Shown: one piece after another, positions 2,115 to 29,463 of the stretch
How positions within the stretch are numbered: position 1 is the first letter of the stretch
Layout: every line of letters starts with the position of its first letter
Assembly: GCA_964035545.1 (NCBI GenBank)
Contig: OZ037766.1
Location: forward strand, 28,317,673-28,381,672
DNA: 64,000 nucleotides
Source: Bugula neritina
Lineage: Eukaryota > Animalia > Bryozoa
Reading direction: 5' to 3'
Made by a program: the position numbers and the translations under genes
Notes under the pieces: model-generated
Database searches by the model: none
What the model was told of the DNA's origin: nothing
Seen by the model: only the letters and a program-made list of their open reading frames with translations

Positions 2115-5100
2115 ATGAAGCTGAAAATAGTTTACACTGGATTATTAATATTTGTAATCAACTTTGTAAGAGGTGGGTTAATAACGCATGAAAGTGTTAT
2201 ATAAAGAGTTGGATAAGTTGTGATAAAATAGGCATAGTTTGATATTTGCTATGGTTATAGTTTGATGGGCAGTGAGTTGTATGAAAGGTGATTAGGGCTC
2301 ATTCAATTTATTACCTTAAATGTTTTTGTCAAGCAAAAAGAATGGTGAAGTGCAGCTTCACATTGAGATCTCTATTTAAATTGGTTTATAATAAATTCAA
2401 ATATTATTATATCAAGTAGGTACACAAAAATTATTGTTTGAAATAGTTTATTAATTTCAATTATATTTATATGACTATATTGCTTTGTTTGTAGTTTCTG
2501 ATGGGCATGCTTCAGAGGTTTGCTTAAAATGTCTTGCCAAGGTATAAAATGCAATGTACTCGCTCACTCAATGCTAGCTCACTTGCTTGCTCACACAGAG
2601 TTTAGATGTCTCTAAACATAGCCTGCGTTTAAGCTATTCTTAGAAGGCAAATAATTGTAGTACTTTTGTATATTGCTAATTTACAGAGCTTACACTGTTA
2701 GTAGCTATTATAGTTATAGATGTTTATGTATGGCTACATGCAAAGCTATTATTATTTGCAGCGTCATGACAACTAACTAAATAATATATCAAATCTGTCG
2801 CGTGACGTATATCCTGTCTTGCCTATAATTCTTACTTCTAATTCTGTCAACTATTTCATGGTAAATTCAGTGCAGAAATGATAGGTGTGTAATAACTGGT
2901 GCAGTTAATCATGCATCTTGCAACAGCACCTTACTAATAAATCATTATATATTCTGCATATATACTTCATGTCTACTTACTATAGAACAATAGAAAGTTT
3001 GTTAATGCTTTCTGTATAACTCTCCACAGATTCACCCTGAGGAAGGCTGTGTAAAAGATCATATAAAAGGTCTAAACTTTTGTGGGCCGTACAGAATTTC
3101 TGAAGATTTCTTTGAAGATTGCAAGAATGTTGTCCCAGGTACCTGGTACTGTAACATGTGCTTTAGAAAGTAAAGTTCAATATGTCATACCTGCAAGGTC
3201 GCTCATATCAATATAATATTAGGCCATCATAAAAGTTTAGGTGAATAATTTTAAAATATATATTATGTTGTTGCTTATATAATTAGCAATTCTTAATTCC
3301 TACAACATATAAACATAATATGAGTTAGGTTTAGAAACATTAAAACTTTGAAGTTTCAAAAAGTTTTAAAAGTATTTAACAATTTCTGAAATAACAATAG
3401 CTTTAAGTCGGTACGTTCGTTGAAAAATTGATCATTTATTTACACTGCTGTTACCCTAAGAATGCCATATGCAATTTTCAAAGCTATATATAGTATTTTT
3501 ACAGATTCAGACTTTAGAAACTGCACAACTGACTATGATTGTGCTACGGAGTGTGTTAAAGCTTGGCAGGATAAATACGAGGATGGCTGTCTGATTGGTC
3601 GACAGAGGAGAGTTAGCTTTGATTACGAGCAACTTCAATGTGCAGACTACGCCACGATGCATGTGTTCGGCCATCTTTCCTGCTCGTGGGTCAACAGTGA
3701 AGATGTTCTTGTTTTTTTGGCTAAACAAGAACCTAAATGTGGCTGCAGTAGTGAGTAGATAAAAAATTACCTAAAAAATTACTCTTTTAATACTGTTTCT
3801 TTTTTAAAAACATTCCGCTTTGATTTCCCCCCAATCTAATTCACTGATTTGAAATATTATATATAAATTGATTCAGTTTAAATGGGGAGAACTTCTAATG
3901 TTACAACTTCTGTGATATTGGTGCGTATATAACAACTAACAACATGGGAAATGTGATGAAAGTTTTTATTAGCCAGTAAACAAGTGAAACAATTTATGCA
4001 GGTATTGACGGCTATAGCTGCATATCATGTGACCTGTATTAGTCATTTCGCTTCTGTAAAGTATTGCATTATAATATGCAGGTCCCTATACTTCGAACAT
4101 AAAGTTTATTACTAATTGGCTAAATTTGATTGACTAGCGTCAAATCCTCATGAGTGCAACAAATTAGATGTTTCAAAATAATAGCAAAAGATACACACTG
4201 CATAGACCAAATCAGTCACTCTAGGTTCTATAAGAGCTAGCCCCAACGTATAATTATATATAGTACGTTATAGGCGATGAAAAACACTGTGAACAATTAA
4301 TATAAATATATTTCACTAATATAATCTGGTGGCATGTACTCTACATACATTGTAAAATGATGATGACTTTTTATAATACCAAAGCTAGTTGAATAAAAAG
4401 TTTATTGAAATTGACTTCTCATGCAGCAATACTGGTGAGTGACTGCATGTGTATACAAAATATGGCTACTTCAACAAATTTATATGAAGGAATTGCTTCT
4501 AGCAAATAAAACTTATTACTGGCTCCAATAGTTACATTTTAATTTAAAACAAAATAAATGTCTTGTCTTGTAAAGCAGATTTTTGCATGAATGCTAGCAA
4601 GAAGTTAGCACTAACCTCAAAATAGTGCTATTAATATAGTAATTCCACTTTTTGAAATTTATATTTAATGCGTCTCTATTCCAATCAACTATGCATAATT
4701 AAAAATTTAAATTTCAATAATGACGTATAATTTATAAAATGGAGCAGTAAAGCTTAATTAATTGACCTGGTCATTTGAGTCATTGCATCATGTATGTCAT
4801 GGTAGGTAACTTTCTCTAGAAGCCTTCATTATACCTGACAGGGACTTAACAATATTCAACATTGTATTTAGTTACAAGCAGCTTTCAAATTTAGCAAAAT
4901 TTGAATCATTGAATATGACATGATATGATTTAGACTGTCAACTCAAGTTAGATTTTTATTTTGATTTTTCTTCCCCAATAGTTTTCATTGGCGTAAGCTA
5001 ATGAATATAATATATGTTAATTGCACATATACATATACATACAGCACTTTATGGAGTTTGCACTACACCAACTATGACAACCGTTGCCATGGTGACAAAC

Positions 5101-26900: not shown

Positions 26901-29463
26901 TTGATAGCTTGAGCCTATCAATGATTTTATGTCTATATGCAGTCAATATTTTTGTCGTGTTGTTTTTAAATTCATGAACCTAATTCGTTGAATTTTGTGT
27001 CAAAACAGAAGTACTTGCAAAAATTCAACAGCCAATCATCATTAAGCTTCCTTACCAAGTATATATTATTTTGTATACAAATCATGCAGGTGTAGGAAAG
27101 TGCACAATGTCATATACAATTATATTGCATCACTATGAAATGACAAACTAAAACCACATGGATTTAAATGTAACATGAATATCTGCATAAATTATTACAA
27201 TAACTTGTCTAATAAATTTCCTCATGACATTGAACGCGTTATCAAACTAACCAGGCAGGTGCAAAACAACTTGATTCTAGCAAAAGATTGCACCGTGAAA
27301 AGATGTCTGTCTACAAGCTGAACCGATTATATACAAATCTCAATTTTTAATCAGTGAATTTGACTTTGATATTAAAAAGAAGATAGTGCACTTGCATATA
27401 TTATTCATCTAACAAAAATCTTGGCAAATGGGTTAATATTAAACTTTAGTTTTTGTTTACTTACTTTTGCATCCACATTTGGGTTCTTGTTTAGCTAGAA
27501 AGGTAAAAATAGCTTCACTGTTAACCCAGGCACAGGAAAGATGGCCGAACCCATGCATCCTGGCATAGTCTGCACATTGCAGTTGCTCGTAATCGAAGCC
27601 AACTCTCCTCTGTCGACCAATCAGACAGCCATCCTCATATTTATCCTGCCAAGCTTTCACACACTCCGTAGCACAGTCATAGTCAGTTGTGCAGTTTCTA
27701 AAGTCTGGATCTGAAAAATATGCTGTAGCTCTGAATAATTGCTCAATATTTTAGTATTTAGCATTTAGGAAAATTATAATAATAAAATAAAGCTTGCTTT
27801 GCAGAATTATTAAGCAGGCGTCATGTCTAAAAGGAATATACTCAGATAATTTCAGATAACAATTGTTATTACGTTTTATGTAGATATTGCTTTAGCATCA
27901 AATACCTGAAACAAAACCTTTGCAATCTTCGAAAAAACGGTTGGAAATTCTGTATGGCCCACAAAATTCCATATCTTTTATATAATCTTTTACACAGCCA
28001 TCTTCAGGGCGAATCTAAAACAGAGAGTGTAAATCACTTACATATTATTATGCTTCTTCAACATGCTCTGTTCTATACTATTTGTAAGCATGAAAGTCAC
28101 TGTTAATATAAGCTAAAAAGTCAAACTACATAATATATAGAATAGAATACATTTTGCACGCACGCACTCACGCACGCACGCATGCACGAACATTATATTA
28201 TAAGCTATATAAGTATCATACCTGGGCTAAACAGTTTAAACAGATCTGTGAGGCGTGACCAGAAACTGAAAACAATAACAATATTTTTATGACATGTGTG
28301 TGTTAGCGCAAGACAGTAAAATTTATTTAAATACTGTTTTTACAGGTGTTTTAATTTAAAGCTACATTAGAATTGTTTTAAACATGTCTCAAACACTGCG
28401 GAAAATTGCATTTCTTGGTTTTGGTAAGTTCTTTAGATAATTAATATTAAATATGTATTGGTGAGTCATTATTTGTTGCAAAATAAATGCTTTTAGTTCA
28501 TGAGAACTTATAAATCACCATAGTATATATTAGAGAGATAGGTTTATATCAGTATATATACTTGTGTATAATAGTAAGTCATTCTGATCACACAAACACA
28601 CTTTAGAATTGTTTAGACAAAATTATGTAAATAATATTGGACATAAATATGTGCAATTATTATAATAACAGTATCAGTTTTCTGAAGCTCCTATAAGTGA
28701 AACAGTTTGTTAAAAAATTTATGAGTTACACATTTTGTCATTAAATAGTTGAAAAGACTCTAACTAGAGAGATATAGTTAACCAATACAAAAGTGCTTAT
28801 ATTTTAATAAAACTTAAATATCGTATATTATACTACTCCTGGGTATACAACATGCATAGATATAACTCTTAGCTATCATTTAAGTTTACAAGTTTATTCA
28901 GTTTAAAACATTTTCATTGTATTCTATAATACTGATAAGATAGTAACAGCAAGCATAATAATGTGAATATTATTGACAGTGGTAAGATATATTAATTATA
29001 AATCAATCTGATTCTAGAAGTGCTAATCGTATCGGTATGAAGATTATGCCTAAACAAGTTATTGCAATAAATTGCAATACTATGCATAGTATTGCAATTT
29101 ATTGCAATAACTTGTTTAGGCATAATCTTCATACGAATACAATGTATAAGCTAAAGTTAAAAAAACTAGAAAAAATTTTTAAGCGTTTTCATAAATTATC
29201 AAACCATAGTTGAATAAAATTTTCAATTAGGGCTGCTATAATTTGTCATAGTTTTCAATTCATTTTAAACACAAGTTTGATAAAACATTTAATGACATCA
29301 ATAATATTGTATATATGTATGTCGCTCAACAATAATTAGAATAATAAACAACAATTTATCATAATAATTTATTTTTATAGTATTGGCTGTTCTCTATATA
29401 AATACCTTTCACAAAGTTAACGGCAAATATTAATAATCTGATACGAACTTTCGTCAACTCCAT
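23923..29463 (-). CDS. Membrane-anchored i-type lysozyme-like receptor, copy C (~385 aa, 6 exons)
   Basis: Exons 29406-29463 (MELTKVRIRLLIFAVNFVK), 28222-28265 (VSGHASQICLNCLAQ), 27906-28014 (IRPEDGCVKDYIKDMEFCGPYRISNRFFEDC), 27465-27710, 26209-26388 (TM), 23923-24443 (tail ending DGYTA*). GT-AG; exons 1-5 are 58/44/109/246/180 nt, as in copy B. Confidence 0.85.
29035..29134. repeat. Perfect 100-bp spacerless palindrome
   Basis: gtatgaagattatgcctaaacaagttattgcaataaattgcaatactatg is followed immediately by its exact reverse complement; in intron 1 of copy C. Confidence 0.95.

Follow-up and report, generated by a model that had tools for sequence, protein, structure and literature searches.

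Membrane-anchored i-type lysozyme-like proteins with a replaced catalytic glutamate predicted from a gene cluster of the bryozoan Bugula neritina

Lysozymes are textbook secreted effectors. Here, we describe a 64,000-nucleotide stretch of AT-rich eukaryotic DNA from Bugula neritina (assembly GCA_964035545.1, contig OZ037766.1, positions 28,317,673 to 28,381,672; hereafter the window) that carries three paralogous genes, A, B, and C, whose predicted products combine an i-type lysozyme domain with a membrane anchor. The layout is the same in all three and consists of a probable signal peptide (judged by eye and hydropathy only, with a peak of 1.69 in A and below 1.6 in B and C), a cysteine-rich i-type lysozyme domain, a Ser/Thr stalk, one transmembrane (TM) helix, and a low-complexity tail. 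We consider this membrane architecture very probably real.

Exons were placed by tblastn and blastn together with boundary motifs and then joined by coordinate. Gene A lies on the + strand (2115-6627; six exons, 380 amino acids) and is composed of exon 1 (2115-2172) with the start codon and the predicted signal peptide, exon 2 (2495-2541) with the signal peptide end and helix 1 (CxxC), exon 3 (3030-3138) with the active-site region, whose codon 2, the position of the catalytic Glu, encodes His, exon 4 (3505-3750) with the helical half of the lysozyme domain and a phase-1 donor after KCGC, exon 5 (5045-5230) with a 14th extracellular cysteine, the Thr-rich stalk, the TM helix, and basic stop-transfer residues, and exon 6 (6131-6627) with a Pro/Ser/Thr/Asn-rich cytoplasmic tail and the stop codon. 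Gene B, on the - strand (22074-18035; six exons, 379 amino acids), is built from exons at 22017-22074, 21194-21237, 20784-20892 (Arg at the catalytic Glu position), 20332-20577 (Destabilase match), 19098-19277 (stalk and TM helix), and 18035-18537 (tail, with a stop three codons before those of A and C, the last tyrosine being gone). The exons of gene C, also on the - strand (29463-23923; six exons, 385 amino acids), lie at 29406-29463, 28222-28265, 27906-28014 (again Arg at the catalytic position), 27465-27710 (Destabilase match), 26209-26388 (stalk and TM helix), and 23923-24443 (tail and stop). None of the three frames contains an internal stop, all 15 introns are of the GT-AG type, and the intron phases are 1,0,1,1,1 in each copy. 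The lengths of exons 1-4 are 58/58/58, 47/44/44, 109/109/109, and 246/246/246 bases in A/B/C, exons 1, 3, and 4 thus being equal in length, and those of exons 5 and 6 are 186/180/180 and 497/503/521. The donor after KCGCx is GTGAGT in A and B and GTAAGT in C. Protein identity amounts to 66% for A-B, 69% for A-C, and 77% for B-C. An earlier reading of the letters without database searches (the sequence-only reading) had proposed three complete paralogs that splice in frame from signal peptide to tail, with identical phases, near-identical exon lengths, and a perfect donor after KCGCx in every copy, and had placed the gene A junctions at 3750/5045 and 5230/6131, all of which agrees with the models given here.

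A fourth copy, D, had been missed by that reading. Only its exons 5 and 6 are intact (16571-15308, - strand), exons 1-4 being gone. Exon 5 (16392-16571) has retained the stalk, the TM helix, and both splice sites in the same phase as exon 5 of gene B, which fits joining after gene B exon 4, and the tail frame of exon 6 (15308-15831) is open. Upstream, a remnant (17204-17873, - strand) is 78% identical to 22927-22258, the sequence before gene B, and joins intron-4 sequence with about 21 bases of overlap. Copy D could be a pseudogene remnant or an alternative tail cassette for gene B. The sequencing run X1 behaves as diploid DNA contigs containing no splice joints and may be the source of the assembly, and so provides no independent support. 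None of its eight listed contig pieces (of 114) bridges the D junction near 17204-17225, and one loose contig end at 17212 resembles the intact sequence found at 22248 upstream of gene B, which hints weakly that X1 may contain a complete copy resembling D. The summed contig depth of X1 (about 390-420 at exon 4 and 17-100 in the introns of A) does not measure copy number and was not used.

When exon 4 alone was compared with the Pfam Destabilase hidden Markov model (PF05497, cut-off 26.2 bits), it scored 30.8, 31.2, and 31.3 bits in A, B, and C, respectively, which bears out the i-type lysozyme assignment of the sequence-only reading. A HMMER search of 1.84 billion representatives returned eight matches, one of them spurious (P0008), and the cluster of the best match contains P0009 (KAF6035526.1), a 218-residue Bugula neritina model. 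P0009 is identical to gene A at 187/215 residues (87%) and joins signal peptide, domain, stalk, and TM helix, ending three residues beyond the exon-5 donor with no tail. A tail-less model of this subfamily is therefore already present in NCBI and in UniRef, where it is labeled 'lysozyme'. The Bugula neritina annotation was made with AUGUSTUS and transcriptome hints (PMC7576161). P0009 scores 53.7 bits on PF05497 and by sequence matches the leech destabilase 8BBU (E 1.3e-6) and the clam lysozyme 2DQA, and exon 4 matches a Destabilase cluster of the ESM Atlas at 0.94. An AlphaFold model of P0009, built from a 38-row alignment, reached a predicted local distance difference test score of 68.8 overall and of 72-90 in the domain blocks, with a low-confidence stalk and a helix at 189-210. 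The top six Foldseek matches of this model are all i-type lysozymes (E 1e-5 to 8e-5), and VIA aligned it to 8BBU with Z 12.0 and a root-mean-square deviation of 2.9 over 115 residues, the next best Z being 7.6; the model leans to the i-type fold because 25 of the 38 alignment rows are ordinary i-type lysozymes.

C78, C84, C100, C117, and C131 are invariant in all 38 alignment rows and C150 is found in at least 90% of them. A, B, C, and P0009 carry 13 cysteines through exon 4 and one more in exon 5, giving 14 extracellular cysteines, and a disulfide between Cys152 and Cys159 is predicted. An insertion of 8-10 residues in exon 4 is found only in the subfamily. The isoelectric point of the domain is 4.9-5.1, so that the predicted ectodomain is acidic and not a cationic killer. 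A hydrophobic segment after the domain was found in none of the 26 ordinary i-type proteins fetched, a small and mostly arthropod sample. A search with a poorly aligned profile gave 28 matches, mostly from arthropods, and thus surveys other phyla thinly, and word-based protein searches with exon 4 (3 candidates) and P0009 (37 candidates) returned no match, which is weak evidence.

More distant relatives were obtained from a metagenome scan in which 11 loci (L001-L011) were confirmed among 82 pattern matches. Six of these belong to the subfamily and form three groups (L001/L002, L003-L005, and L006; exon 4 34-40% identical), and L007-L011 are ordinary i-type lysozyme loci. A phase-1 GTRAG donor just after the last cysteine is present in 6/6 subfamily loci but in 0/5 ordinary ones, against a background of 140/21327. 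A downstream stalk/TM exon was found in five of the six subfamily loci, with three whole TM helices and two that are cut by the contig end (L002 and L003); L004 ends before the TM exon. In L001, the exon measures 183 bases, near the size of exon 5 in the window, and contains a TM helix and a phase-1 donor, in L006 it encodes a 460-base mucin-like stalk (about 120 residues) with a TM helix and KRKR, and in L005 the whole helix lies in a broken copy. Behind the TM exon of L001 and L006 lie further small exons in frame, one of which contains a Tyr and the stretch PPLPQR. The second cysteine of CxC and the stalk cysteine are both present in L001 and both absent from L003, L005, and L006; because this cysteine pair co-varies across the junction, the join of exons 4 and 5 is supported.

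The intron positions are common to the subfamily and the ordinary loci L007 and L008. When 37 exon-4 rows were placed in a tree, the 11 rows of the subfamily grouped on a single branch (96/96) beside L007 and L008 (99/88), a placement that carries a long-branch warning. The tree left out P0016, P0007, P0008, near-duplicates (P0001, P0003, P0005, P0010-15, L002, and L009-L011), and the broken L005; in its subfamily rows P0002, P0004, and P0006, which are represented by protein sequence, the TM helix is putative. The predicted architecture of domain, stalk, and TM helix is, by these loci, old, conserved in distant homologs, and carried by one clade. Separately, L005 (534-1775) has a stop in exon 4 as well as a stop and a frame change in the stalk, which fits birth-and-death turnover. 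L008 (1930-2361), L009, and L010 are ordinary i-type loci with catalytic residues, and their exon 4 encodes a long Thr-rich, nonhydrophobic C-terminal extension; they may be intermediate between the secreted and the anchored type. Tandem copies were seen in L007, L010, and L011.

In destabilase, Glu34 and Asp46 serve the muramidase activity and probably Ser51, His112, and Glu34 the isopeptidase activity, Glu34 being common to both proposed catalytic sets (PMC10126035). In the ordinary loci L007, L008, and L010, the second codon of exon 3, preceded by the same phase-0 intron, encodes the catalytic Glu, and the residue is kept in these three as well as in 8BBU and 2DQA. In A, B, C, P0009, and L006, the five readable members of the subfamily, the residue is H, R, R, S, and R, respectively. 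Ser51 is Phe in the same five, Ser49 is Leu or Met, and from the isopeptidase set of destabilase (Ser51/His112/Glu34, or Ser49) the His alone is kept, its position being invariant in 14/14 rows. Counting from the first cysteine, the Asp46 position of A, B, C, and P0009 holds Asp, and counting from the second it holds Ile. In the model, the hairpin (strands 42-45 and 50-53) has a two-residue insertion in its turn, a register by which Asp46 is probably kept in these four Bugula-type copies. L006 has Ala there and thus neither acid. Only the four Bugula-type copies have another Glu, two residues downstream of the missing one.

Without its proton donor, the enzyme should have no canonical activity, an established mechanism (PMC13736114), and canonical lysozyme activity has very likely been lost from the subfamily. 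As the catalytic Glu is replaced in 5/5 readable members, the domain is likely a binding module. The sequence-only reading had likened the co-opted fold to noncatalytic PGRP-LC; the loss of the Glu, which it did not state, supports a likely noncatalytic ectodomain. It was observed that insect i-type lysozymes without catalytic residues dock an N-acetylglucosamine (GlcNAc) trimer (NAG3) in silico (PMC13736114), and by this analogy substrate binding may persist in the disarmed domain.

Two other uses of the cleft have to be considered at this point. The proteins may be membrane-tethered enzymes that digest material at the surface or in the phagosome by residual or rerouted muramidase or isopeptidase activity, with a tail used only in trafficking, which would suit the invariant His112, the probable Asp46, and the nearby Glu. 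As Glu and Ser51 are replaced in all five members, L006 has neither acid, and Glu34 belongs to both proposed catalytic sets (PMC10126035), we regard this as very unlikely. Alternatively, the cleft may have been remodeled into a protein-binding site, serving for instance as a decoy that senses bacterial i-type lysozyme inhibitors of the PliI type or an endogenous ligand. A PliI-lysozyme complex has been solved for the i-type fold (4pj2). In the cleft, Glu, Ser51, Gln, and Trp have all been replaced, yet the domain is still strongly conserved, and the exon-4 insertion is peculiar to the subfamily. Such a partner is putative, however, and PliI resides in the periplasm and contacts the catalytic residues, which this subfamily no longer has, and this makes this possibility quite unlikely in our view.

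The stalk of A, B, and C comprises 26-27 residues with 8-10 Ser/Thr and is followed by the one strongly hydrophobic segment that each protein has after the domain (Kyte-Doolittle 19-mer 2.6-2.9) and by a clear K/R-rich flank; the Thr-rich stalk and the TM helix of the sequence-only reading are both present, the stalk being short. All members seen have a cysteine near the cytoplasmic end of the helix (window 5152-5200 and its equivalents, L001:1118-1125, L006:1878-1890), a possible palmitoylation site. The tail measures 175-183 residues and contains neither Trp nor Cys, and no Pfam family reached its cut-off on the tails or the TM exon. A tail of about 170 residues with tyrosine motifs had been expected; the length holds, but immunoreceptor tyrosine-based activation, inhibition, and switch motifs (ITAM, ITIM, and ITSM) and NPxY are absent from all four tails (A, B, C, and D). 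PxPxPR, on the other hand, occurs in 4/4 tails (shuffle p 0.004-0.007; p 0.05-0.11 for the looser PxxxPR), DGY near the C-terminus in 3/4 (p about 0.01), YVN in 3/4 (p 0.03-0.05), and PPxY in 2/4, and the tails of A and C end hydrophobic-x-hydrophobic, resembling class II PDZ ligands (p 0.05-0.06). The motifs may be ligands of SH3, SH2, and WW domains, with CIN85/CD2AP, Grb2, Nedd4-type ligases, and PDZ scaffolds as likely partners. DGY resembles the start of a hemi-ITAM, whose YxxL leucine is absent here. The tail is compatible with an adaptor-docking role and is no proof of one.

Ratios of nonsynonymous to synonymous substitution (dN/dS, by Nei-Gojobori) are 0.11-0.19 for exon 4 and 0.18-0.25 for exons 3 and 4 together. 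When A is compared with B and C, they are 0.50-0.53 for exons 5 and 6 together and 0.50-0.51 for exon 6 (p 0.002), exon 5 gives 0.47-0.50 for A against the others, and the tails of A and D give 0.67 (p 0.066). Pairwise gaps are multiples of three in 21/22 cases in exons 5 and 6 (overlapping, about 6-7 independent events) and in 21/63 in the introns (five intron comparisons, without the two A-B intron pairs with 12 and 26 aligned bases and the B-D 3' flank). The dN/dS values and the frame-keeping gaps therefore indicate that the TM and tail exons are coding and that the tail is under weak constraint. The strong purifying selection on exon 4 would fit an unchanging ligand. Synonymous divergence (dS) of A from B and C is 0.36-0.37 in exon 4 and 0.48-1.2 in the other exons, and gene conversion of exon 4 was considered as a candidate process.

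The long tail may nevertheless lie outside the main product, which would then be either anchored with a short tail, like P0009, or secreted after read-through of the exon-4 donor. Such read-through stops after two codons in A, B, and C alike, intron 4 holds 3, 4, and 1 AATAAA sites (in AT-rich DNA and with no control), and dN/dS among the tails of B, C, and D is near neutral. On the other hand, the four tails are open over 164-173 codons with gaps that keep the frame, the constraint between A and the other two is significant, phase-1 splice sites match, tail exons lie behind the TM exon in L001 and L006 too, and the secreted form would have an odd 13 cysteines. A main product without the tail is thus highly improbable, and exon-4 read-through could still give a minor soluble form.

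The ectodomain might also bind a self glycan or matrix, such as cuticle chitin or an egg or larval coat, and act in adhesion, cuticle sensing, or fertilization instead of immunity. The sperm c-type lysozyme-like protein SLLP1 is an analogue. The strong purifying selection on the ectodomain, not the diversification typical of many immune receptors, would suit such a role, as would the absence of ITAM and ITIM, the mucin-like stalk of about 120 residues in L006, and the PDZ-ligand-like termini of A and C, and chitodextrins can serve as lysozyme substrates (PMC13736114). The fold is antibacterial by origin, however, and the tandem duplication, the broken L005, the headless copy D, and the fast tails are signs of the birth-and-death evolution usual for immune gene clusters. 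We therefore consider a self-glycan receptor unlikely.

For the reading of A, B, and C as receptors for bacterial cell-wall glycan that drive uptake or signaling, taken as a whole, we see about an even chance. Under this reading, the starting point would have been a secreted i-type lysozyme in which a splice donor arose immediately upstream of the stop codon and to which a stalk/TM exon was added. Muramidase activity would have ended when the general-acid Glu was lost, the cleft being retained, and purifying selection would have continued to act on the domain as a noncutting module that binds the glycan of bacterial cell walls. Peptidoglycan or another GlcNAc polymer, as a multivalent ligand, would then cluster the receptors, and short linear motifs of the disordered tail would recruit adaptors for endocytosis or kinase signaling without ITAM or ITIM, the tails having diverged by lineage and paralog. 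A tentative and rather doubtful extension is a receptor family with swappable tails, in which the disarmed domain reads the cell wall and the fast-changing tails (gene B's own or the D cassette), together with the soluble read-through form, set the output.

Several observations weigh against the bacterial-receptor reading. The ligand, the immune role, the localization, and the signaling are all inferred. The probably kept Asp46 and the nearby Glu may allow residual activity. The cleft differs from that of the enzymes (YQI to YRI/LRL, YW to FF/FY, and Ser51 to Phe), and because several substrate-cleft residues have changed, glycan binding may be lost too. The join of exons 5 and 6 is a genomic prediction, and P0009 ends without a tail. 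Among the tails of B, C, and D, dN/dS is 0.81-0.92 and not different from 1, the tail tyrosines are invariant in 4/8 columns compared with 67/167 for all residues, and in L001 and L006 the tail is divided among other exons and does not resemble that of Bugula. The motif statistics come from 18 tail patterns, several of which were picked after inspecting the sequence, in copies that are kin.

The subfamily shares the Pfam match, the fold, the intron positions, and His112 with i-type lysozymes and destabilases (PF05497, GH22i; 8BBU, 2DQA, and 3AB6), from which it differs in the replaced Glu and Ser51 and in the added stalk, TM helix, and tail, as those are small, secreted, single-domain proteins. 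The noncatalytic i-type lysozymes of insects are likewise conserved without canonical residues and thought to bind substrate (PMC13736114), and a Q-to-R change in the G.FRI motif is common to many of them. They are, however, small and secreted and lie on the other side of the tree, and most of those fetched keep an acid near helix 1 and have no hairpin Asp, opposite to the pattern in the Bugula copies. In clitellates and mussels, SH3b-bearing i-type lysozymes have an extra module, attached through a low-complexity linker, and extra C-terminal cysteines, but these are secreted digestive enzymes with no TM helix or tail described in the excerpt (PMC11083476). PGRP-LC is a transmembrane receptor made from a peptidoglycan-enzyme fold with an incomplete active site (PMC3616906); its fold is that of an amidase, not a lysozyme, and the two are not homologous. 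The PGRP-LC analogy drawn by the sequence-only reading thus stands in its logic, a disarmed enzyme fold used as a sensor, but not in its build, which is type I with a C-terminal tail in Bugula. PGRP-LC is type II, with an N-terminal signaling region that recruits Imd; the Bugula proteins have no counterpart of it. Plant GH18 receptor kinases such as tobacco CHRK1 also couple a glycoside-hydrolase ectodomain, called predicted active, to an intracellular signaling part (PMC5485988). These have a chitinase fold, a kinase inside, and a developmental role, and are not homologous. The CHRK1 ectodomain reportedly lacks the catalytic Glu.

In the excerpts available, i-type lysozymes are described as secreted only (PMC11083476, PMC3616906, PMC10291997, and PMC13736114), the tandem destabilase expansion of tubeworms is presented with no mention of a membrane form (PMC10291997), and the word 'lysozyme' is absent from the main text of PMC4192642. 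Dictyostelium AlyL was considered as a membrane lysozyme precedent and rejected, since the excerpt describes an amphipathic insert and not an anchor (PMC8545105). No description of a membrane-anchored i-type lysozyme was found among the titles and opening lines of abstracts listed in literature searches, which included few subscription journals, in line with the earlier statement that no such form was known. The architecture is thus provisionally undescribed, a known fold and a known disarmed-enzyme logic in an unreported combination. From the proposal that an effector fold has been co-opted as the ligand-binding module of a receptor, the membrane architecture, the i-type fold, and conservation beyond this genome have stood, and ligand binding is a conjecture.

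The window contains further features. Between gene A and copy D, a single 951-codon frame (8053-10905, - strand) has tetratricopeptide repeats above cut-off and a DUF294/nucleotidyltransferase-like N-terminus below it (weak SidM_N and NTP_transf_2), with a possible further exon at 11170-11406. A tandem array (30558-38261, + strand) consists of three units, 77-83% alike and about 2.6 kb apart. A hydrophobic exon rich in Trp and an acidic exon resembling a tail are present in each unit, there is no Pfam match at cut-off, and the array is possibly another small membrane-protein family. Pieces of a cAMP-receptor-like G protein-coupled receptor gene lie at 57680-62215 (+ strand; Dicty_CAR 20.7 bits, cut-off 21). 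Repeats at 13483-14004, 62759-63356, 29026-29143, and 53869-54214 comprise two minisatellite arrays and two inverted-repeat elements resembling miniature inverted-repeat transposable elements.

Bugula neritina is a model bryozoan that carries a bacterial symbiont (PMC7576161), and the gene cluster provides a small, testable candidate for bacterial sensing in Bryozoa, a phylum with hardly any description of its immunity. The likely origin of the family can also be read from the gene structure, a donor newly formed immediately ahead of the former stop codon. If the receptor reading is true, the lysozyme fold would be added to the few enzyme folds that have found a second use as sensors at the cell surface, next to the amidase fold of PGRP-LC and the chitinase fold of the plant kinases, and if the tails are indeed swappable, bryozoans would have a paired-receptor-like system for food bacteria, biofilm cues, or symbionts.

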